A stretch of 64,000 nt of DNA, taken from assembly GCF_041886205.1 (NCBI RefSeq), contig NZ_CP169029.1, one strand, 5' to 3'. Of the stretch, positions 1,862 through 39,033 are shown piece after piece. This stretch comes from Escherichia coli. Its GTDB lineage: Bacteria; Pseudomonadota; Gammaproteobacteria; Enterobacterales; Enterobacteriaceae. A program made the translations under genes and the position numbers. Every line of letters begins with the position of its first letter. The stretch's first letter is position 1. A model generated the notes under the pieces. That model saw only the letters and a list, made by a program, of their open reading frames with translations, was not told the DNA's origin and ran no database searches.

Positions 1862-4174
1862 ATGCCTCGCTTGTTAACCAAACGCGGCTGCTGGATAACG
1901 CTGGCAGCTGCGCCATTTCTCCTTTTTCTTGCAGCGTGGGGAGCAGATAAACTCTGGCCTCTACCGCTGCATGAAGTCAATCCCGCACGAGTGGTCGTGG
2001 CGCAGGATGGTACGCCGCTCTGGCGCTTCGCCGATGCTGACGGCATCTGGCGTTATCCGGTAACAATCGAAGATGTTTCTCCACGTTACCTTGAAGCGCT
2101 GATCAATTATGAAGATCGCTGGTTCTGGAAGCATCCGGGGGTGAATCCATTCTCGGTGGCGCGCGCAGCATGGCAAGATCTCACTTCGGGACGGGTTATT
2201 TCCGGTGGCAGCACGCTCACTATGCAGGTTGCTCGTCTGCTTGATCCTCACCCCAAAACATTTGGCGGCAAAATTCGCCAGCTCTGGCGCGCGTTACAAC
2301 TGGAATGGCATCTGTCTAAGCGTGAAATTCTGACCTTGTATCTTAACCGCGCTCCGTTTGGCGGTACGTTGCAGGGGATCGGTGCGGCAAGTTGGGCTTA
2401 TCTCGGAAAGTCGCCTGCGAATTTAAGCTATTCCGAGGCGGCAATGCTGGCGGTTTTGCCGCAAGCGCCCAGCCGTCTTCGCCCGGATCGTTGGCCGGAG
2501 CGTGCCGAAGCCGCGCGTAATAAAGTGCTCGAACGGATGGCCGTGCAAGGTGTGTGGTCCCGTGAGCAGGTAAAAGAGTCAAGGGAAGAACCCATCTGGC
2601 TGGCACCCCGACAAATGCCGCAACTGGCACCGCTGTTTTCGCGCATGATGCTCGGTAAAAGCAAAAGCGACAAAATCGTTACTACGCTGGATGCCGGTCT
2701 TCAACGACGTCTGGAAGAACTGGCGCAAAACTGGAAAGGGCGGTTGCCACCGCGCAGCTCACTGGCGATGATCGTGGTTGATCATACAGATATGCGTGTT
2801 CGCGGCTGGGTGGGATCGGTTGATCACAACGATGATTCACGCTTTGGTCATGTTGATATGGTCAATGCGATCCGATCGCCAGGATCGGTGCTCAAACCGT
2901 TTGTTTATGGTCTGGCGCTGGATGAAGGCTTGATCCACCCGGCATCACTGCTGCAAGACGTCCCCCGGCGCACCGGTGATTATCGACCAGGTAACTTTGA
3001 TAGCGGTTTTCATGGCCCGATCAGCATGAGCGAGGCGCTGGTGCGCTCGCTGAACTTACCTGCTGTGCAGGTGCTGGAAGCTTATGGACCGAAACGGTTT
3101 GCGGCAAAGTTACGCAATGTTGGATTGCCGTTATATTTGCCCAACGGCGCTGCGCCGAATCTTTCACTCATTCTCGGCGGCGCTGGTGCAAAACTGGAAG
3201 ATATGGCGGCAGCGTATACCGCGTTTGCTCGCCACGGCAAGGCAGGCAAATTGCGCTTACAGCCTGACGATCCGCTGCTTGAACGGCCTTTAATGTCGTC
3301 GGGGGCGGCGTGGATCATTCGCCGGATTATGGCTGATGAAGCGCAACCCTTGCCGGATAGTGCCTTGCCACGCGTCGCCCCACTGGCATGGAAAACGGGC
3401 ACCAGCTATGGCTATCGTGACGCCTGGGCGATTGGGGTTAACGCTCGCTATGTCATTGGGATCTGGACTGGCAGACCTGACGGCACGCCCGTTGTTGGTC
3501 AGTTTGGCTTTGCCAGTGCCGTACCATTGTTGAATCAGGTCAATAATATCTTACTGTCGCGCAGTGCGAATCTGCCGGAAGACCCGCGCCCGAACTCAGT
3601 CACTCGTGGCGTTATCTGCTGGCCGGGCGGACAGTCTTTGCCGGAAGGTGACGGTAACTGTCGCCGCCGCCTGGCAACCTGGCTGCTGGACGGGAGTCAG
3701 CCGCCAACTCTATTACTGCCGGAGCAGGAAGGCATTAATGGCATTCGTTTCCCCATCTGGCTGGATGAAAATGGCAAACGTGTTGCCGCTGATTGCCCGC
3801 AAGCGCGACAAGAAATGATAAATGTCTGGCCGCTACCGCTGGAACCCTGGTTGCCCGCATCAGAACGTCGCGCTGTGCGCTTACCACCGGCCTCGACAAT
3901 TTGCCCGCCATACGGTCACGATGCCCAGCTCCCTCTGCAGCTGACAGGCGTTCGCGATGGCGCGATTATTAAACGTTTACCGGGCGCAGCGGAAGCGACT
4001 TTGCCGTTGCAATCAAGTGGAGGGGCAGGTGAACGCTGGTGGTTTCTGAATGGCGAACCGTTAACTGAACGCGGGCGCAACGTGACCCTGCATTTGACGG
4101 ATAAAGGTGATTATCAATTGCTGGTGATGGATGACGTAGGGCAAATCGCGTCAGTACATTTTTCATTTCAGTGA
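1862..4174 (+). CDS. pbpC: penicillin-binding protein 1C (peptidoglycan glycosyltransferase)
   Basis: 770-aa ORF with an N-terminal membrane anchor and a glycosyltransferase-type N-domain; ATG abuts the yfhM stop (TAAATG). Confidence 0.9.
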   Translation: MPRLLTKRGCWITLAAAPFLLFLAAWGADKLWPLPLHEVNPARVVVAQDGTPLWRFADADGIWRYPVTIEDVSPRYLEALINYEDRWFWKHPGVNPFSVARAAWQDLTSGRVISGGSTLTMQVARLLDPHPKTFGGKIRQLWRALQLEWHLSKREILTLYLNRAPFGGTLQGIGAASWAYLGKSPANLSYSEAAMLAVLPQAPSRLRPDRWPERAEAARNKVLERMAVQGVWSREQVKESREEPIWLAPRQMPQLAPLFSRMMLGKSKSDKIVTTLDAGLQRRLEELAQNWKGRLPPRSSLAMIVVDHTDMRVRGWVGSVDHNDDSRFGHVDMVNAIRSPGSVLKPFVYGLALDEGLIHPASLLQDVPRRTGDYRPGNFDSGFHGPISMSEALVRSLNLPAVQVLEAYGPKRFAAKLRNVGLPLYLPNGAAPNLSLILGGAGAKLEDMAAAYTAFARHGKAGKLRLQPDDPLLERPLMSSGAAWIIRRIMADEAQPLPDSALPRVAPLAWKTGTSYGYRDAWAIGVNARYVIGIWTGRPDGTPVVGQFGFASAVPLLNQVNNILLSRSANLPEDPRPNSVTRGVICWPGGQSLPEGDGNCRRRLATWLLDGSQPPTLLLPEQEGINGIRFPIWLDENGKRVAADCPQARQEMINVWPLPLEPWLPASERRAVRLPPASTICPPYGHDAQLPLQLTGVRDGAIIKRLPGAAEATLPLQSSGGAGERWWFLNGEPLTERGRNVTLHLTDKGDYQLLVMDDVGQIASVHFSFQ

Positions 4175-4268
4175 AATATACAAAATATTTATTAATCTAA
4201 TTATGGTATTTATATTTGGAATGCATTAATAATTTAATAATCTCACGTTTTTTTAAACGACTAATTAT

Positions 4269-4282
4269 TTGATTGTTATCAG
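4269..4282. promoter_or_regulatory. FNR-like box (TTGATtgttATCAg, 9/10 match to TTGAT-N4-ATCAA) upstream of the DmsA-like gene
   Basis: Read directly in the AT-rich 160-bp leader; centre lies about 62 bp upstream of the ATG at 4338. Confidence 0.4.
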
Positions 4283-4337
4283 CATTGTTCTCGAATAAAT
4301 ACGTGAATATTTATTTTTTCATTTTCGGGAACGCAAG

Positions 4338-6719
4338 ATGGATACGCCAGACGAAAAGGAACGCATTACATTTCCGCAAGTATCACGACGTAGTTTTTTA
4401 CAAGCGACTTCCGCGCTTATCACTTTGCCTTTTATTTCTTCTGCCGCAAAGGCGCAATCTTCAGATGCGTCGCCAGAAGTTACAGCTCCGGTGGCTGATA
4501 AAGTCGTGCCCACCTGTAGCACATTTGACTGTGGTGGTAAGTGCGATATTCGGGCGCATATGCGCGACGGTGTGGTGACGCAAATTACCACGCTTCCCGA
4601 TAACGAACTGGATCCACAAATGCCGATTATGCGCGCCTGTGTTCGTGGTCGCGGCTATCGTAAATTTGTTTATCATCCAGACCGCCTGAAATATCCGATG
4701 AAACGGGTCGGTAAACGGGGCGAGGGTAAATTTGAGCGTATTTCATGGGATGAGGCGACGACCTTAATTGCCGATAACCTGAAAAGGATCACGCAACAAT
4801 ATGGCCCGGCTTCACGTTATGTCCATGTCGGGACGGCTGTTTCTGGTGGAACATTTTCTGGTGATGCGATGGCACGTCGGCTGTTAAATTTAACCGGTGG
4901 TTATCTTGAATATTATCACTCAGTTAGTCTGGGTAATACTGCGGCCGCAACGCCTTACACGTATGGCGTGGCGGCCAGCGGTAACTCGATGGACACTCTT
5001 CTGGATACCAAACTGGTGATCCTCTGGGGGCATAACCCAACGGAAACCATCTTCGGTCACACCAATTACTTTTTTCAAAAAATGAAGCAAAACGGTACGC
5101 GTTTTATCGTGGTGGATCCGCGTTATTCCGACACTGTATCTTCGCTTGCCGATCAGTGGATCCCGCTGCTGCCGACCACGGACAATGCGTTGATGGACGC
5201 GATGATGTACGTGATTATCAGCGAAAATCTCCACGATAAGCAGTTTATCGAAACTTACACGCTCGGTTTTGATGAAGATTCCATGCCTGAGGGCGTACCG
5301 GCGAACGAGTCGCTGTATGCCTACCTGTTCGGCGCGAAAGATGGCGTGCGCAAAACGCCGGAATGGGCAGAAAAAATTACCCACGTTCCGGCACAAACTA
5401 TTCGTCAACTGGCACGCGATTACGCCACTACAAAACCTGCGGCGCTGATTCAGGGTTGGGGGCCACAGCGACATATTTGCGGCGAACGTACCGCCCGAGG
5501 TTCAACTTTACTGGCCTCGATTACCGGTAACGTCGGCATCAAAGGTGGCTGGGCGGCAGGTTATGGCGGTAGTTCTAATCGTAAATTCTGCGTTGGACCA
5601 GATATGCCAGAAAATCCGGTACAAGCGAAAATCTCGATTATGAACTGGATGCAGGCGGCGGATGATGCTTCTAAAGTTACGCCGCAAGATGGGCTTAAAG
5701 GTGTCGATAAACTCGACAGTAATATCCGCCTGCTGTTCTCACTGGCAGGTAATTATCTGGCGAACCAGAACCCGGACGTCCACCAGGCCGCGAAGCTCCT
5801 TGAAGACGAATCTAAAATAGAATTCATCGTACTCAGCGATCTGTTCATGACTCCGAGCGCGAAATATGCCGATGTGTTGCTGCCGGAAACCAGCTTTATG
5901 GAACGCTGGAATATCGGCGAAACATGGGGAACAGCGAGCTATCTTATTCTGTCAGAAAAACTGATTGAGCCGGAGTTTGAACGTCGCACGGATTATGACT
6001 GGTTGCGTGACGTGGCGAAAAAACTGGGTGTCGAAGCCGAGTTCAGTCAGGGACGTGATGAGAAGCAATGGATTGAGCATATCTGGGAGCAAACTCGTCT
6101 GGCGATGCCGGATGAAAATTTGCCGGACTTCGCGACCCTGCAAAAAACACGTCGCCATCTTTTCAAAAGTGCGCCGCACATCGCTTTCGAAGCAAATATT
6201 CGCGATCCGCAGAATAATCCTTTCCCGACGCCTTCCGGCAAAATTGAGATCTTCTCTAAGCGTCTTTTTGATATGCAAGATCCAGAAATTCCCGCGCTTT
6301 CGCACTATGTCCCTGCCTTTGAAGGGCCAGAAGATAAACTGACGGCGAAATACCCGTTGCAGCTCATCACCTGGAAAGGGAAAAACCGTGCTAATTCCAC
6401 CCAGTATGCTAACCCATGGCTGCAAGAAGTTCAGACGCAAAAACTCTGGCTGAATCCGCAAGATGCAAAACAGCGCGGGATTAGCGAAGGAGATAGCGTA
6501 AAAATTTATAACGATCGTGGTGTGAGCATTATCCCGGTGGAAATAACCCCCCGTATCATCCCTGGCGTAGTTGCTATGCAGGCGGGGGCATGGTGGCAAC
6601 CGGATGCACAAGGTATCGATCGCGGAGGCTGTGCCAATGTACTGAGTTCGACCCGCATTACGGCGCTGGCGAAAGGGAATTCGCATCAAACAATGCTGGT
6701 GGAGGTTGAGAAAGCATGA
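4338..6719 (+). CDS. Tat-exported molybdopterin (bis-MGD) oxidoreductase catalytic subunit, DMSO reductase (DmsA) family
   Basis: 793 aa; twin-arginine signal SRRSFLQATSA followed by an AxA-type cleavage region; N-terminal Cys cluster C-x4-C-x3-C...C; length and architecture match DmsA/YnfE-type enzymes; stop overlaps the next ATG. Confidence 0.85.
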   Translation: MDTPDEKERITFPQVSRRSFLQATSALITLPFISSAAKAQSSDASPEVTAPVADKVVPTCSTFDCGGKCDIRAHMRDGVVTQITTLPDNELDPQMPIMRACVRGRGYRKFVYHPDRLKYPMKRVGKRGEGKFERISWDEATTLIADNLKRITQQYGPASRYVHVGTAVSGGTFSGDAMARRLLNLTGGYLEYYHSVSLGNTAAATPYTYGVAASGNSMDTLLDTKLVILWGHNPTETIFGHTNYFFQKMKQNGTRFIVVDPRYSDTVSSLADQWIPLLPTTDNALMDAMMYVIISENLHDKQFIETYTLGFDEDSMPEGVPANESLYAYLFGAKDGVRKTPEWAEKITHVPAQTIRQLARDYATTKPAALIQGWGPQRHICGERTARGSTLLASITGNVGIKGGWAAGYGGSSNRKFCVGPDMPENPVQAKISIMNWMQAADDASKVTPQDGLKGVDKLDSNIRLLFSLAGNYLANQNPDVHQAAKLLEDESKIEFIVLSDLFMTPSAKYADVLLPETSFMERWNIGETWGTASYLILSEKLIEPEFERRTDYDWLRDVAKKLGVEAEFSQGRDEKQWIEHIWEQTRLAMPDENLPDFATLQKTRRHLFKSAPHIAFEANIRDPQNNPFPTPSGKIEIFSKRLFDMQDPEIPALSHYVPAFEGPEDKLTAKYPLQLITWKGKNRANSTQYANPWLQEVQTQKLWLNPQDAKQRGISEGDSVKIYNDRGVSIIPVEITPRIIPGVVAMQAGAWWQPDAQGIDRGGCANVLSSTRITALAKGNSHQTMLVEVEKA

Positions 6720-7345
6720 GCCAATTTAAAGAATTTGCATCTGTCAGCGACAAACAATTAGGGTTCTTCATTGACTCTTCGCGTTGTTCTGGCTGTAAAG
6801 CGTGTCAGGTGGCCTGTAAAGACAAAAATAACCTTGAGGTTGGGCGACGTTTTCGCCGCGTGTATGAAGTGAACGGCGGTGGCTTCATCGCCACTGGAGA
6901 GGGCGGTGTGAGTCATAATGTCTTTGCTTATACCCTTTCTATTTCCTGTAACCATTGCGCGGATCCGATCTGTATCAAAAATTGCCCGACGATGGCGATG
7001 CATAAGCGTCCCGGAGACGGTATTGTGCGCGTGAATACTGATAAGTGCGTCGGTTGCGGTTACTGCGCCTGGTCCTGTCCTTACGGCGCACCGCAAATGA
7101 ATGAGCAGACCGGGCAGATGTCGAAATGCGATTTCTGTATTGATCTGCAAGCTAAAGGAGAACAACCCATTTGCGTGGCAACGTGCCCGTTGGGGGCGAT
7201 TAAGTTCGGCCCTATTGATGAGTTGCGTGAAAAGTATGGCGATGTCAGTGATGTGAAAGGTTTACCTGATTCGTCGATTACGCAGCCAAATCTGGTGATT
7301 AAACCGCATCAGGGCGCGGAAAAGGAGGCGTCACATCATGCATGA
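6716..7345 (+). CDS. 4Fe-4S electron-transfer subunit, DmsB-like
   Basis: 209 aa with four ferredoxin-type Cys clusters (e.g. CSGCKACQVAC, CNHCADPICIKNCP, CVGCGYCAWSCP, CDFCIDL...CVATCP); translationally coupled to neighbours. Confidence 0.85.
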   Translation: MSQFKEFASVSDKQLGFFIDSSRCSGCKACQVACKDKNNLEVGRRFRRVYEVNGGGFIATGEGGVSHNVFAYTLSISCNHCADPICIKNCPTMAMHKRPGDGIVRVNTDKCVGCGYCAWSCPYGAPQMNEQTGQMSKCDFCIDLQAKGEQPICVATCPLGAIKFGPIDELREKYGDVSDVKGLPDSSITQPNLVIKPHQGAEKEASHHA

Positions 7346-8159
7346 ATTACCGTTAATGGCTTTTACGCTGTTGTTACAGGCATCGGTCGGTATGACCTTG
7401 TGGCTGGCGTTTCTTCATCGTCATATTTTAATCACCTCCAGCGCCCGCCCGGTTATGCGGCCGCCATTACTGTTGGCTTTTTTGGCAGGTGCCGTAGGGT
7501 TACTGATTTCTACCTTACATCTGGGTTATCCACTTAATGCGATGCATGCGCTAAGCCACTTTTCCAGTTCATGGCTGAGTCGGGAAATTATCTTTGGTGC
7601 GCTGTATCTGGCGCTATTGGGTTTATCCACATTACTGGTCATGTTACGCAAAGGCGGCTGGCAACTCCTGCTTATGCTAGCGGCAGTGGTCGGGATTGTT
7701 GATGTTTTCTGCATGGCGCAAGTTTACATCCATACGTCGATTATCACCTGGCAGCATTACAACACGCTGATTATGTTCTTAGGTACAGTGGGAATTCTCG
7801 GTTCAGCGCTGGTAGCAGTGTTTCGTATTAGCGGAATTTTGCCGCAGATTGATGCCCTGCGTAATGGATGCGTGTTGGTGATCGCTTTCCTGGTTCTGTT
7901 GCGTTTGTTGGTTCAGCCGTTGTGGATAGGGGATTTAACGGCAAATGCGATGCAGATAGCCACATTGCCACATGCGCCATTAGCGATGCTGGGACAGTTA
8001 AAACCCATACTGACACTAAGCTGGGGAATTTCCGTCATTGGGATGATGTTCTTTGCTGTCGGTGGTTGTAAAAAGAATATCCCGGCGGCGTTATTCGGTA
8101 GCGTAATGCTAGTGGGGAGTGAAGTTATGCTGCGTTTTGTCTTTTTTAGTATCAGCTAA
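7338..8159 (+). CDS. integral membrane anchor subunit, DmsC-like
   Basis: 273 aa, highly hydrophobic with about 8 predicted transmembrane segments; position after the A and B homologues. Confidence 0.7.
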   Translation: MHELPLMAFTLLLQASVGMTLWLAFLHRHILITSSARPVMRPPLLLAFLAGAVGLLISTLHLGYPLNAMHALSHFSSSWLSREIIFGALYLALLGLSTLLVMLRKGGWQLLLMLAAVVGIVDVFCMAQVYIHTSIITWQHYNTLIMFLGTVGILGSALVAVFRISGILPQIDALRNGCVLVIAFLVLLRLLVQPLWIGDLTANAMQIATLPHAPLAMLGQLKPILTLSWGISVIGMMFFAVGGCKKNIPAALFGSVMLVGSEVMLRFVFFSIS

Positions 8160-9013
8160 TGTTAAGTCATAACATAACGATTGGCGCGGAATGCGCGCGC
8201 CAACGCTTTCGTTTTGCAACATGTCATGCCTGTGTCGAGGCTTGCCCGGCACAGGCGCTAACGCTGACAGAAGAGGGCGTAGCGGTCGACGCGGAACAAT
8301 GTATTGAGTGTGCGGTTTGCCAGTTTATTTGCCCGCAAGAGGCTATTCGTGGCGTTAATTCCCCTTTACGTTATTTTCGCAATCACACCCTGGTCGCACC
8401 TTTCACCACTATTGCGCCGACGCTGGAAGAACTTTTGCTATGGCATAAAGAGCAGGGGATCACAGCGATCGCGATTGATCTGAGTCAGGCGAAGGCATGG
8501 GAGCGCGCATTATTGCTGTTAAACGAACGCTTACGGCAATATGGCGAGGAAGGCTGGTCTGTGGTATCTCCACATACCAGTGAGGTGAATGTTTCCCGGC
8601 GTCGTTTGTTCCATGTGCAGCGTGCGGATGTTCAGATGACACAAATACAGCCAGGATTACGTCGGTTACATTATTTTTGGCCCCAGATTAGTGATGCTCG
8701 CCCGATGATGGATCCTCAAAAGTGTCAGCTTTGCGGTGCATGCTGGCGGGCCTGCGGGCAACAGGTCTTTTCGCTTAACGAAGGCCATTTACAAATCAAT
8801 GATGCCTTGTGTACCGGATGCCAAAATTGTATTGCTGTTTGTTTTCATCAGGCAATGACCGTTGAATTGACGATTCTACCGGCAAAAATTGTGAATCTTC
8901 ATGCTAATCGCAAAGTCTGTAAAACCTGTCAAAAATCCTTTCTTACTTTTCAGCAAAATGCGCAAAATTGTCTTTATTGCCAACGTCATCGCTATGGGAT
9001 GAGAGCATCATAA
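8159..9013 (+). CDS. polyferredoxin-like protein (four 4Fe-4S-type Cys motifs plus C-terminal CxxC-x14-CxxC)
   Basis: 284 aa; motifs CHACVEACP, CIECAVCQFICP, CQLCGACWRAC, CTGCQNCIAVC and CKTCQ...CLYCQ; start overlaps the previous stop (TAATG). Confidence 0.7.
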   Translation: MLSHNITIGAECARQRFRFATCHACVEACPAQALTLTEEGVAVDAEQCIECAVCQFICPQEAIRGVNSPLRYFRNHTLVAPFTTIAPTLEELLLWHKEQGITAIAIDLSQAKAWERALLLLNERLRQYGEEGWSVVSPHTSEVNVSRRRLFHVQRADVQMTQIQPGLRRLHYFWPQISDARPMMDPQKCQLCGACWRACGQQVFSLNEGHLQINDALCTGCQNCIAVCFHQAMTVELTILPAKIVNLHANRKVCKTCQKSFLTFQQNAQNCLYCQRHRYGMRAS

Positions 9014-9153
9014 AAGTCGAGTTGTTGCTAAAACTCATTTTATTTTAAAAAAATGTTACCTTCATCAATAGTCAACGGCCCTGTTGCTCATTATAATCCG
9101 CGCCATCTCGTACGCTGGTACAGACAACAACAGAATAATTTACAGAGGTAAAA

Positions 9154-9585
9154 ATGGCTATTGAACGTACTTTTTCCATCATCAAACCGAACGCGGTAGC
9201 AAAAAACGTCATTGGTAATATCTTTGCGCGCTTTGAAGCTGCGGGGTTCAAAATTGTCGGCACCAAAATGCTGCACCTGACCGTTGAACAGGCACGTGGC
9301 TTTTATGCTGAACACGATGGAAAACCGTTCTTTGATGGTCTGGTTGAATTCATGACCTCTGGCCCGATCGTGGTTTCCGTGCTGGAAGGTGAAAACGCCG
9401 TTCAGCGTCACCGCGATCTGCTGGGCGCGACCAATCCGGCAAACGCACTGGCCGGTACTCTGCGCGCTGATTACGCTGACAGCCTGACCGAAAACGGTAC
9501 CCACGGTTCTGACTCCGTCGAATCTGCCGCTCGCGAAATCGCTTATTTCTTCGGCGAAGGCGAAGTGTGCCCGCGCACCCGTTAA
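9154..9585 (+). CDS. ndk: nucleoside diphosphate kinase
   Basis: 143 aa, [15 protein letters not shown]..., with the NDK active-site His region (NGTHGSDS). Confidence 0.95.
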
Positions 9586-36648: not shown

Positions 36649-36662
36649 TTGATATATATCAA
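36649..36662. promoter_or_regulatory. perfect FNR box TTGAT-atat-ATCAA upstream of pdeF (yfgF)
   Basis: Exact match to the FNR consensus, read directly; about 130 bp upstream of the pdeF ATG. pdeF is reported to be anaerobically (FNR) induced. Confidence 0.6.
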
Positions 36663-36789: not shown

Positions 36790-39033
36790 ATGAAACTGAA
36801 TGCAACTTATATAAAAATACGTGATAAATGGTGGGGGCTTCCGCTGTTCCTGCCTTCTTTAATCTTGCCCATTTTCGCTCACATTAATACTTTTGCGCAT
36901 ATTTCTTCCGGTGAGGTTTTTCTCTTTTATCTGCCTTTGGCACTGATGATCAGCATGATGATGTTTTTCAGCTGGGCGGCATTGCCAGGGATCGCCTTAG
37001 GGATTTTTGTCCGCAAATATGCAGAGCTTGGTTTTTACGAAACGCTCTCATTAACGGCTAATTTTATTATCATTATCATTCTCTGTTGGGGTGGTTACAG
37101 GGTCTTTACTCCCCGGCGTAACAACGTTTCACATGGTGATACCCGTTTAATTTCCCAGCGTATATTCTGGCAGATTGTGTTTCCTGCAACGCTGTTTCTG
37201 ATACTTTTTCAGTTTGCTGCGTTTGTAGGATTACTGGCGAGCAGAGAAAATCTGGTCGGCGTCATGCCTTTTAACCTCGGGACCTTAATCAATTATCAGG
37301 CCTTACTGGTGGGCAATCTGATTGGTGTCCCGCTGTGCTACTTCATCATTCGTGTAGTGCGAAATCCATTTTATTTACGTAGCTATTATTCGCAATTAAA
37401 ACAGCAGGTTGATGTCAAAGTCACAAAAAAAGAGTTCGCACTCTGGCTACTGGCACTAGGTGCTTTACTGTTGCTGTTATGCATGCCGTTAAATGAAAAA
37501 AGCACAATTTTTAGCACCAATTATACCTTGTCATTATTGCTGCCCCTGATGATGTGGGGAGCGATGCGCTATGGGTATAAGTTGATTTCGCTGCTCTGGG
37601 CGGTCGTGCTGATGATCAGCATCCACAGCTATCAAAATTACATTCCCATTTATCCTGGCTATACCACTCAGCTGACCATAACCTCCTCCAGTTATCTGGT
37701 ATTCTCTTTTATTGTCAATTATATGGCTGTACTGGCAACCCGTCAGCGAGCGGTAGTCAGACGCATTCAGCGACTTGCGTATGTGGACCCGGTGGTTCAT
37801 CTGCCAAATGTTCGCGCCCTGAATCGCGCGTTGCGTGATGCCCCCTGGTCTGCGCTTTGTTATTTACGCATCCCTGGCATGGAAATGCTGGTTAAAAACT
37901 ATGGCATCATGCTGCGGATTCAATACAAGCAAAAACTTTCTCACTGGCTGTCACCCTTGCTGGAACCGGGTGAAGATGTTTATCAGCTTTCGGGTAACGA
38001 TCTCGCGCTGCGACTGAATACAGAATCGCACCAGGAGCGCATTGCCGCACTGGATAGCCATCTCAAGCAATTTCGTTTCTTTTGGGATGGCATGCCGATG
38101 CAACCGCAGATTGGCGTCAGTTACTGCTATGTGCGCTCGCCAGTGAATCATATCTACCTGCTGCTGGGAGAGCTAAATACGGTCGCCGAACTTTCCATCG
38201 TGACCAACGCCCCGGAAAATATGCAGCGTCGCGGGGCAATGTATTTGCAACGCGAATTGAAAGATAAAGTCGCGATGATGAATCGGCTACAGCAGGCGCT
38301 GGAACACAACCATTTTTTCCTGATGGCCCAGCCGATTACCGGTATGCGTGGTGATGTTTACCATGAAATTCTTCTGCGCATGAAAGGTGAGAATGATGAA
38401 CTGATCAGCCCCGATAGCTTCTTGCCGGTCGCGCACGAATTTGGTTTATCGTCGAGTATCGACATGTGGGTCATTGAGCATACGCTGCAATTTATGGCTA
38501 AAAACAGAGCGAAGATGCCCGCTCACCGTTTTGCTATTAATCTGTCTCCAACCTCGGTATGTCAGGCGCGTTTTCCTGTTGAAGTCAGTCAACTGCTGGC
38601 TAAATATCAGATTGAAGCGTGGCAACTTATTTTTGAAGTCACCGAAAGTAATGCTCTGACCAATGTTAAGCAGGCGCAAATCACCTTGCAGCATCTTCAG
38701 GAATTAGGCTGCCAGATTGCGATTGATGATTTCGGCACCGGCTACGCCAGCTATGCGCGGCTTAAAAATGTGAATGCCGATCTGCTTAAAATTGACGGCA
38801 GTTTTATCCGCAATATTGTGTCAAATAGTCTGGATTATCAGATTGTGGCGTCGATTTGCCACCTGGCGCGAATGAAGAAAATGCGGGTAGTGGCAGAGTA
38901 CGTTGAAAACGAAGAGATCCGCGAGGCGGTGCTCTCTTTGGGGATCGATTATATGCAGGGTTATCTTATTGGTAAGCCGCAACCGTTAATTGATACGCTG
39001 AATGAAATCGAACCCATTCGCGAAAGTGCCTGA
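36790..39033 (+). CDS. pdeF: cyclic-di-GMP phosphodiesterase PdeF (MASE1 - degenerate GGDEF - EAL)
   Basis: 747 aa; N-terminal polytopic membrane domain; EAL-domain motifs (EVTE, DDFGTGYAS, EYVE) at the C-terminus. Confidence 0.9.
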   Translation: MKLNATYIKIRDKWWGLPLFLPSLILPIFAHINTFAHISSGEVFLFYLPLALMISMMMFFSWAALPGIALGIFVRKYAELGFYETLSLTANFIIIIILCWGGYRVFTPRRNNVSHGDTRLISQRIFWQIVFPATLFLILFQFAAFVGLLASRENLVGVMPFNLGTLINYQALLVGNLIGVPLCYFIIRVVRNPFYLRSYYSQLKQQVDVKVTKKEFALWLLALGALLLLLCMPLNEKSTIFSTNYTLSLLLPLMMWGAMRYGYKLISLLWAVVLMISIHSYQNYIPIYPGYTTQLTITSSSYLVFSFIVNYMAVLATRQRAVVRRIQRLAYVDPVVHLPNVRALNRALRDAPWSALCYLRIPGMEMLVKNYGIMLRIQYKQKLSHWLSPLLEPGEDVYQLSGNDLALRLNTESHQERIAALDSHLKQFRFFWDGMPMQPQIGVSYCYVRSPVNHIYLLLGELNTVAELSIVTNAPENMQRRGAMYLQRELKDKVAMMNRLQQALEHNHFFLMAQPITGMRGDVYHEILLRMKGENDELISPDSFLPVAHEFGLSSSIDMWVIEHTLQFMAKNRAKMPAHRFAINLSPTSVCQARFPVEVSQLLAKYQIEAWQLIFEVTESNALTNVKQAQITLQHLQELGCQIAIDDFGTGYASYARLKNVNADLLKIDGSFIRNIVSNSLDYQIVASICHLARMKKMRVVAEYVENEEIREAVLSLGIDYMQGYLIGKPQPLIDTLNEIEPIRESA

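Follow-up and report, generated by a model that had tools for sequence, protein, structure and literature searches.

A DmsABC-like operon with a polyferredoxin gene between pbpC and ndk in a minority of Escherichia coli, and its counterpart in Salmonella

Gene Content of the pbpC-ndk Interval

What is encoded by the four genes that separate pbpC from ndk in some Escherichia coli chromosomes, and how long have they been there? The question is raised by a stretch of 64,000 nucleotides of E. coli DNA (contig NZ_CP169029.1; the whole stretch is called the window), in which a block of four genes, designated A, B, C, and D, occupies this interval. In K-12, pbpC (b2519) and ndk (b2518) are neighbors and the same four genes do not lie between them, as had been stated when the block was first noticed from the sequence (the original prediction). 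The block is very likely the E. coli orthologue of Salmonella STM2530-STM2527, long resident at pbpC-ndk and encoding a predicted FNR-activated, DmsABC-type respiratory reductase. For annotation purposes it is an ordinary accessory operon, already annotated in O157:H7 Sakai, and its Salmonella counterpart has already been studied.

The listing of open reading frames (ORFs) agrees with the RefSeq annotation of strain 6EVA, which is 100% identical to the window across 5.8 kb, and the ORFs, the family scores, and the annotation all agree on a DmsABC-like four-gene block. Stops and starts overlap throughout, as had been stated, by 4 (A/B), 8 (B/C), and 1 nt (C/D). The features of the locus are given below; Tat denotes twin-arginine translocation, Mo-bisPGD the molybdenum bis(pyranopterin guanine dinucleotide) cofactor, and FS0 the cluster of subunit A.

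1862-4174, + strand: pbpC, left flank (ORF list, RefSeq annotation of 6EVA)
4175-4337, + strand: promoter region of the operon, intergenic, AT-rich, G+C about 0.40, 163 nt (composition)
4269-4282, + strand: FNR-box-like site TTGATTGTTATCAG, 9 of 10 consensus positions
4305-4310, + strand: -10-like hexamer GAATAT, with a spacing that fits a class II FNR promoter
4338-6719, + strand: A, 793 aa, Mo-bisPGD catalytic subunit, predicted to be Tat-exported (ORF, TIGR02166)
4383-4403, + strand: Tat motif SRRSFLQ of A, residues 16-22 (sequence motif)
4515-4640, + strand: FS0 cysteines C60, C65, C69, and C101 of A (spacing C-x4-C-x3-C)
4926-4928, + strand: predicted Mo ligand Ser197 of A (aligned to Ser147 of Rhodobacter DMSO reductase)
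6716-7345, + strand: B, 209 aa, DmsB-type ferredoxin (ORF, TIGR02951)
7338-8159, + strand: C, 273 aa, DmsC-family membrane anchor, with a quinol oxidation site by homology (PF04976)
8159-9013, + strand: D, 284 aa, polyferredoxin (ORF, two Fer4 dicluster domains)
8594-8611, + strand: internal S-R-R-R-L-F motif of D, residues 146-151 (low-confidence loop of the structure model)
9014-9153, + strand: D-ndk spacer, identical from 9022 onward to the pbpC-ndk spacer of operon-free strains
9069-9097, + strand: promoter-like site for ndk (consensus scan), inside the spacer part common to operon-free strains
9154-9585, + strand: ndk, right flank (ORF list, RefSeq annotation of 6EVA)

Subunits A, B, and C

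The subunit identities given in the original prediction held for all four genes. Over its full length, A scored 1130.1 bits on TIGR02166 (dimethyl sulfoxide (DMSO)/selenate family A subunit; cut-off 777.7). On the models for DmsA, YnfE, and YnfF (NF011566, NF041885, and NF041884) it reached 707.4, 668.7, and 692.5 bits, far below the exception-level NCBIfam cut-offs of 1600, 1675, and 1650. Its identity to K-12 DmsA, YnfE, and YnfF was 44%, 41%, and 43%, respectively, and to the S. enterica orthologue 84%; A was thus confirmed as a distinct third paralogue beside dmsABC and ynfEFGH, and these comparisons did not place it with an enzyme of characterized substrate. The N-terminus (S16-R-R-S-F-L-Q22, a hydrophobic stretch, and AKA-QS) has the composition of a twin-arginine signal peptide, which predicts export.

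Relatives of A were collected in a scan of one genome per species, which yielded 112 relatives, of which 80 (67-98% identity) were kept, with their flanks determined by tblastn. The FS0 motif CSTFDCGGKC, with the spacing C-x4-C-x3-C, is found in the window A and, without exception, in the 80 related loci, whereas DmsA has C-x3-C-x3-C. Ser197 of A aligns with the Mo ligand Ser147 of the solved Rhodobacter DMSO reductase and with the ligand Ser of DmsA. The nearest solved structures of A are soluble DMSO and trimethylamine N-oxide (TMAO) reductases, and no DmsABC-type complex was among its structure sequence matches at E ≤ 1e-20. The closest, Rhodobacter DorA (PDB 4DMR and 1EU1; E = 3e-84), is a soluble monomer without FS0, and Val and Thr replace its Tyr114 and Trp116 in the window A.

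With 268 bits, subunit B exceeded the TIGR02951 cut-off of 214.1; its 16 Cys fall into four groups, which suggests four [4Fe-4S] clusters. It has no signal peptide and would be exported while bound to A. Subunit C matches the Pfam family DmsC (PF04976) over residues 1-270 (E = 2e-23) and has eight hydrophobic segments; no model matched C in the NCBIfam scan. The three subunits share with E. coli DmsABC the overall build, Tat export, FS0 and Mo-bisPGD with a Ser ligand, the four-cluster B, the DmsC anchor, and likewise FNR-type control; DmsABC differs in having no D gene and in the conserved Tyr of DmsA, which the window A lacks. By homology, quinol would be oxidized at C, and electrons would pass through the four [4Fe-4S] clusters of B and FS0 of A to a periplasmic, Ser-ligated Mo-bisPGD, A and B having presumably been exported folded via Tat.

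Counterparts in Other Genera

The gene order yfhM-pbpC-ABCD-ndk-rlmN was found in two cryptic Escherichia, in S. enterica subsp. arizonae and diarizonae, and in several Enterobacter, as well as in Superficieibacter, Huaxiibacter, and Lelliottia, six genera in total. Two more relatives, one in a Logan assembly and the other in an assembly whose D is labelled C. freundii at NCBI, were found via D; they have the same synteny and bridge the gap between Escherichia and Salmonella. Identities to the window (in the order pbpC, A, C, D) are as follows:

Escherichia sp. E1V33 (L003): 97%, 98%, 97%, 98%
L086: 92%, 94%, 79%, 72%
L088 (Citrobacter-labelled): 86%, 89%, 62%, 53%
Salmonella: 82%, 84%, 50%, 39%

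The similar cluster that had been expected at the equivalent Salmonella locus is therefore present, as pbpC-ABCD-ndk in subsp. arizonae and diarizonae. The Salmonella comparison was made with these two subspecies, and orthology with Typhimurium STM14_3103 was derived through them; in S. Typhimurium, STM2527-2530 presumably adjoin ndk and pbpC, judging from the STM numbering. The Salmonella operon STM2530-2527 (STM14_3103-3100, 'psr1ABC' and a fourth gene) resembles that of the window in its site (arizonae and diarizonae), its four genes, and their order, and also has the C-x4-C-x3-C FS0, the conserved Ser ligand, and an FNR box. Its B counterpart at pbpC-ndk is 86-87% identical. The two differ in C (about 50%) and D (about 39%), and in that the E. 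coli copy is a presence/absence polymorphism.

A replacement of C and D in Escherichia only was considered and rejected: Salmonella and Enterobacter also share 63% in C and 52% in D, with 89% in A, and intermediates exist. Rapid divergence of C and D is seen between all genera. In Citrobacter, Leclercia, Rahnella, Proteus, and others the operon lies at other sites; neighbors shared by those genera, sought as a clue to the substrate, were not found.

Distribution within E. coli

The operon is present in 379 of 5,426 complete E. coli genomes, always as a single chromosomal copy at pbpC-ndk. About three quarters of the carriers are O157:H7 or O157-like (one carrier in six was sampled). The Sakai genes, ECs_3381-3384, are flanked by ndk (ECs_3380) and pbpC (ECs_3385) and are annotated as DMSO reductase chains and a 'hypothetical protein', with A as 'S- and N-oxide reductase subunit A'. 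A contiguous empty junction was found in 5,043 genomes. As these junctions form one haplotype family with 95-100% identity, they represent one old allele and not many independent deletions. About 93% of sequenced E. coli thus carry one old operon-free allele, and the operon persists in O157:H7 and a few others. In the original prediction, the block was taken to be possibly ancestral and deleted in K-12; the ancestral part is supported by synteny and by divergence that tracks that of the flank, but a loss specific to K-12 is not, the site being empty in 5,043 genomes.

In one further genome, that of strain ZF8-1 (L083 3131-4305), IS1A replaces most of the operon, leaving the first approximately 36 codons of A and the last approximately 105 codons of D, a recent and independent loss.

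Regulation

The FNR-box-like site TTGATTGTTATCAG starts 69 nt 5' of the A start codon. Of 18 syntenic loci in other genera, 16 have a box with this same spacing, in several cases a perfect TTGAT-N4-ATCAA, followed by a conserved -10-like block GAGAAT...TTTTTATTT; the syntenic spacers otherwise do not align. STM14_3103 is listed among the loci most activated by FNR in a Research Square preprint (PMC12636705). The conserved box predicts that the operon would be induced anaerobically. An Rfam scan of the region gave no match, for example to a molybdenum cofactor (Moco) riboswitch, and a promoter and terminator consensus scan inside the operon returned nothing exceeding shuffled sequence.

Elsewhere in the window, a perfect FNR consensus, TTGATATATATCAA, was observed at 36649-36662, approximately 128 nt upstream of a 747-aa ORF (36790-39033) that corresponds to the cyclic di-GMP phosphodiesterase gene yfgF/pdeF (Sakai ECs_3365), which we take to be FNR-dependent.

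The Electron Acceptor

Three features of A, read from its sequence, point to an acceptor that differs from that of DmsABC. The position of DorA Tyr114, at which DmsA, YnfE, and YnfF all retain Tyr, is occupied by Val, Asn, Leu, Ala, Thr, or Ser across the 80 related loci. The A clade lacks a five-residue loop of DmsA in the alignment, which we take to hold T148 and R149, both of them reported to influence the choice of substrate. Finally, the ligand Ser is surrounded by YHSVS-x-GNT in the A clade and by Y-G-[DS]-Y-S-[ST]-A-Q-I in DmsA, YnfE, and YnfF.

The Salmonella data agree with a physiological acceptor that is probably neither DMSO nor methionine sulfoxide (MetSO). STM2530, 43% identical to DmsA, did not restore DMSO-dependent anaerobic growth and was reported with its substrate unknown (Cruz et al., 10.1101/2022.11.29.517730), and Salmonella deletion mutants respire DMSO and MetSO normally (Kim et al., PMC12636705). 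The statement of the original prediction on the substrate requires qualification insofar as two Salmonella studies show no role with DMSO or MetSO and a 2025 preprint claims sulfate reduction.

A third, redundant reductase of DMSO, S-oxides, or N-oxides (or selenate), with a specificity overlapping those of DmsABC and YnfEFGH, is possible but doubtful. It would be in line with the best NCBIfam family of A ('DMSO/selenate family reductase'), with a Ser Mo ligand as in S- and N-oxide reductases, with DMSO and TMAO reductases as the nearest solved relatives, and with the Sakai label. However, STM2530 supplied in trans gave no DMSO-dependent growth, the deletion left DMSO and MetSO respiration unaffected, and the active-site Tyr of DmsA, YnfE, YnfF, and DorA is replaced throughout the clade, with the residues next to the Ser being SVS-x-GNT as opposed to DYS-[ST]-AQI. 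A different oxo-acceptor, perhaps another S-, N-, or Se-oxide, is likely.

Kim et al. rename STM14_3103 psr1A, for 'periplasmic sulfate reductase', with catalysis at FS0 without Moco, and give the C-4X-C-3X-C FS0 as a feature of the Psr1A clade (PMC12636705). Applied to the window, the complex would reduce sulfate to sulfite in the periplasm at the FS0 of A, independently of Moco, and feed sulfur assimilation and oxidative-stress resistance; we consider this unlikely. In that preprint, membranes of a Salmonella mutant without four dmsA paralogues lose the benzyl-viologen:sulfate activity and membranes with a single paralogue are intermediate, the mutants grow poorly on sulfate as the only sulfur source, and the Mo-ligand Ser is dispensable for Psr1A, Psr2A, and Psr3A (PMC12636705). 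The window A also has the Psr1A-type FS0 and is the close orthologue of the S. enterica protein. Nevertheless, the sulfate claim has one source, a preprint without peer review, no other paper being found in the literature search, and the detailed biochemistry (electron paramagnetic resonance, a moa mutant, FS0 variants) was carried out on Psr3 (STM14_1809) and not on Psr1. The Mo-ligand Ser and the whole Mo-bisPGD fold are invariant in the clade and under strong purifying selection, which would be difficult to reconcile with an irrelevant cofactor, and most E. coli grow on sulfate without the operon. The sulfate/sulfite couple has an E0' of approximately -516 mV and menaquinone approximately -74 mV, so that the reduction of unactivated sulfate by quinol would be strongly endergonic. 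The sulfate-reductase claim is unconfirmed and does not yet constitute a well-characterized function, so A does not, on this account, fall in with a well-characterized enzyme of known substrate. Natural E. coli strain pairs with and without the operon, and K-12 as a clean host, could be used both for testing the disputed Mo-independent sulfate reductase and for finding the acceptor of the DmsABC-type complex.

Gene D and Its Family

The D protein has neither a signal peptide nor a hydrophobic segment, and the Pfam scan returned only Fer4 families. In an alignment of 21 D orthologues (29-71% identity to the window D), 20 Cys are invariant, arranged in four CxxCxxCxxxC-type groups and a C-terminal CxxC...CxxC-x2-H module; a central alpha/beta domain carries a conserved ELLxWH. 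A profile search of 1.8 billion representatives gave approximately 50 full-length relatives (E = 1e-35 to 1e-54). In this wider family all 20 Cys are likewise invariant, and so is the internal motif [ST]-[RK]-R-x-[LF]-[LF], which in the window (S146-RRRLF) falls in the sole low-confidence loop of the model and resembles the Tat consensus.

Distant D relatives lie inside operons of Mo-bisPGD membrane reductases in all five resolvable contexts, namely [A]-B-DmsC-D, TorD-A-B-DmsC-D, A-B-NrfD-TorD-D-TatA, and, twice, D-radical SAM-TorD-A-B-DmsC. A TorD-like chaperone is encoded in four of the five; a TatA-family gene follows directly 3' of D in one, and a radical-SAM gene (440 aa) separates D from the chaperone in two. 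Such operons, one with an NrfD-type anchor, are located as follows:

L099: 7001-14047
L102: 5750-12728
L101: 2022-8121
L103: 2307-7867

D is missing in 27 of the 80 related operons, and the Salmonella complementation construct is, by its name, 3103-3101, i.e., without the fourth gene (PMC12636705). A link between the presence of D and the C-x4-C FS0 motif was rejected, the motif being universal whether D is present or not. A chaperone of the TorD/DmsD/NarJ type was also rejected, as PF02613 (Nitrate_red_del) was not found in the Pfam scan of D. This separates the operon from YnfEFGH-DmsD (a putative selenate reductase), which is likewise a paralogue of the DmsABC operon extended by one gene at its end; there that gene is the TorD-family chaperone DmsD, whereas the polyferredoxin D has no TorD domain.

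Nor does D show more than generic similarity to NapF: in a single pairwise BLASTP against K-12 NapF, only Fer4 stretches of 25-51 residues matched (best E = 2e-4), and TIGR00402 was not among the best 25 of 38 D matches. NapF is a cytoplasmic four-cluster protein that has been implicated in the maturation of the Fe-S center of NapA; both its presence and the need for it vary. It shares with D four tetra-cysteine motifs, the lack of an export signal, a gene beside that of a Tat-exported Mo-bisPGD enzyme, an incomplete distribution, and partial dispensability. Unlike NapF, D has 120 additional residues, the central domain, and the C-terminal CxxC...CxxC-H module, and the similarity is confined to generic ferredoxin motifs; the twin-arginine-like SRRGIL (S-R-R-x-x-L) of E. 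coli NapF is N-terminal, whereas the RR motif of D is internal.

D belongs to an undescribed polyferredoxin family that is tied to such enzymes and is possibly NapF-like. By analogy, given the lack of an export signal, the molybdoenzyme operon contexts, the pattern of dispensability, and the precedent of NapF, we propose that D would stay in the cytoplasm, as predicted, and take part, prior to export, in the maturation or redox conditioning of the enzyme, in the manner of NapF and NapA, with the homology to NapF being generic; D is not placed in the chain from quinol to substrate. The family is unnamed and conserved, and may bear on the maturation of molybdoenzymes before Tat export. A bolder pair of ideas, which we consider unlikely, is that the D family might be a pre-export gate-keeper for Tat-exported Mo-bisPGD membrane reductases with DmsC or NrfD anchors, its internal motif mimicking a Tat signal and docking on the chaperone or the precursor, and that, separately, if the preprint is right, the operon would be an E. 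coli presence/absence polymorphism for a Moco-independent, FS0-catalyzed sulfate reductase.

History of the Site

The best reading of the distribution is that the operon was at pbpC-ndk in the ancestor of the Escherichia/Salmonella/Enterobacter group and was lost from most E. coli. An ancestral origin followed by loss is preferred to an insertion because of the synteny across genera and the divergence of the operon, which tracks that of pbpC; the word 'inserted' in the title of the original prediction was misleading in this respect. Cruz et al. (10.1101/2022.11.29.517730), comparing with K-12 only, proposed that Salmonella gained the operon after its split from Escherichia. This is contradicted by an operon that occupies the identical position in part of E. 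coli and in several other genera, and the published proposal of a post-split acquisition of STM2530-2527 is corrected here.

A horizontally acquired island, or a re-introduction by homologous recombination from another Escherichia lineage into a minority of E. coli whose ancestor had no operon, appears rather improbable. It could account for an operon restricted to 7% of genomes in patchy lineages, for an empty allele that is old and spans the diversity of the species, for B, C, and D being closer than pbpC between the window and strain E1V33, with pbpC a mosaic, and for the sharply different pbpC ends of the two alleles; Cruz et al. likewise proposed a gain after Salmonella and Escherichia had split. 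On the other hand, site, order, and orientation are the same in Salmonella, Enterobacter, Superficieibacter, Huaxiibacter, Lelliottia, and three Escherichia-like lineages, and the divergence of the operon parallels that of its flank. The absence of integrase, insertion sequence (IS), and tRNA boundaries noted originally was borne out: no tRNA was found at the operon boundaries in the window, no integrase or IS ORF among the ORFs around the operon, and no flanking repeats beyond chance level in the window. The coding G+C content (about 0.49-0.52) is normal. None of the marks of a mobile island (integrase, transposase, tRNA target, direct repeats, or deviant composition) was therefore present. 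Moreover, if the operon was re-introduced by recombination into the same ancestral site, the locus would still be ancestral to the genus.

The reading of a long-resident DmsABC-type reductase, lost from most E. coli, is weighed down by several observations. Filled and empty alleles disagree at about half of the positions in the last 21 nt of pbpC, against approximately 99% identity of the flanks, and the direction of the event within E. coli is not proven. Relative to Escherichia sp. E1V33, the synonymous divergence (dS) of pbpC is 0.29, that of B and C 0.05-0.09, and that of D is also lower. Between Salmonella and Enterobacter (L010/L013 vs L012), A is 89% identical and pbpC only 79%, and the A of both is only 81-83% identical to that of E. 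coli; this suggests an exchange between Salmonella and Enterobacter, or a faster change in Escherichia. The FNR box matches 9 of 10 positions, and sites as good as this occur three times in the 64-kb window against 2.5 expected, i.e., at the level of chance. If catalysis were free of the Mo cofactor, as in the preprint, the last step of the electron path drawn above would be wrong. ECs3381-3384 are unmentioned in the literature searched.

The lower dS of B, C, and D than of pbpC indicates that homologous recombination between lineages has reshuffled the region and may have brought the operon back into some E. coli lineages, and pbpC is, judged by its substitution pattern, a recombination mosaic. 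Within 3175-3675 of the window, pbpC showed 10-20 mismatches per 100 nt to E1V33 and, nearer the operon, 2-3 per 100 nt. Relative to K-12, the flanks have 0-3 mismatches per 100 nt, except for the last approximately 21 nt of pbpC (4154-4174). The C-termini encoded there, ...ASVHFSFQ* in filled and ...ATVKFVMQ* in empty alleles, are homologous but different. The empty spacer contains a filler of 16-19 nt that has no counterpart in the filled allele and no match within the window. The empty pbpC end (L002 1755-1791) was observed to be closer to the Citrobacter-labelled L088 than to the filled allele of E. coli.

Selection and Integrity

In the seven Escherichia and related loci that were compared with the window, none of the four genes is disrupted. 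The ratio of nonsynonymous to synonymous divergence (dN/dS) was 0.04-0.10 for A, 0.02-0.11 for B, 0.08-0.24 for C, and, in more distant comparisons, 0.11-0.12 for D. Intact genes with dN/dS well below 1 mean that the operon is maintained under purifying selection and is not decaying. That it might be a decaying relic without function in E. coli, as its loss in 93% of genomes, the one IS1-truncated remnant, the fast divergence of C and D between genera, and the frameshifted STM2530 orthologue of S. Typhi and S. Paratyphi A (Cruz et al., 10.1101/2022.11.29.517730) could suggest, is highly improbable, for every Escherichia allele compared has the four genes intact and constrained, neither the 20 Cys of D nor the cofactor ligands vary, and the promoter element is conserved.

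Other Relatives of the Operon

Several related loci depart from the A-B-C-D arrangement. In Photorhabdus (L041-L048 and L074), an A homologue (75%) has no B, C, or D downstream and is followed by a gap and an aldehyde-dehydrogenase-like ORF. In Budvicia (L035 6932-15723), A-B-C of the window type without D precede a second A'-B'-C' set and more ORFs. In Proteus mirabilis (L050 5626-6396), the operon is placed directly downstream of an fnr-like gene with an FNR-like N-terminal cysteine motif, and the two are divergent. In a metagenome relative with the same synteny (L090 4167-6561), A is split into ORFs of 236 and 545 aa, a probable frameshift or assembly error. Two contigs labelled 'Chryseobacterium sp. 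18061' and Citrobacter sp. 18056 (L021/L022) have the same A-D match coordinates and identities, and the former is probably contamination or a mislabelled public assembly.

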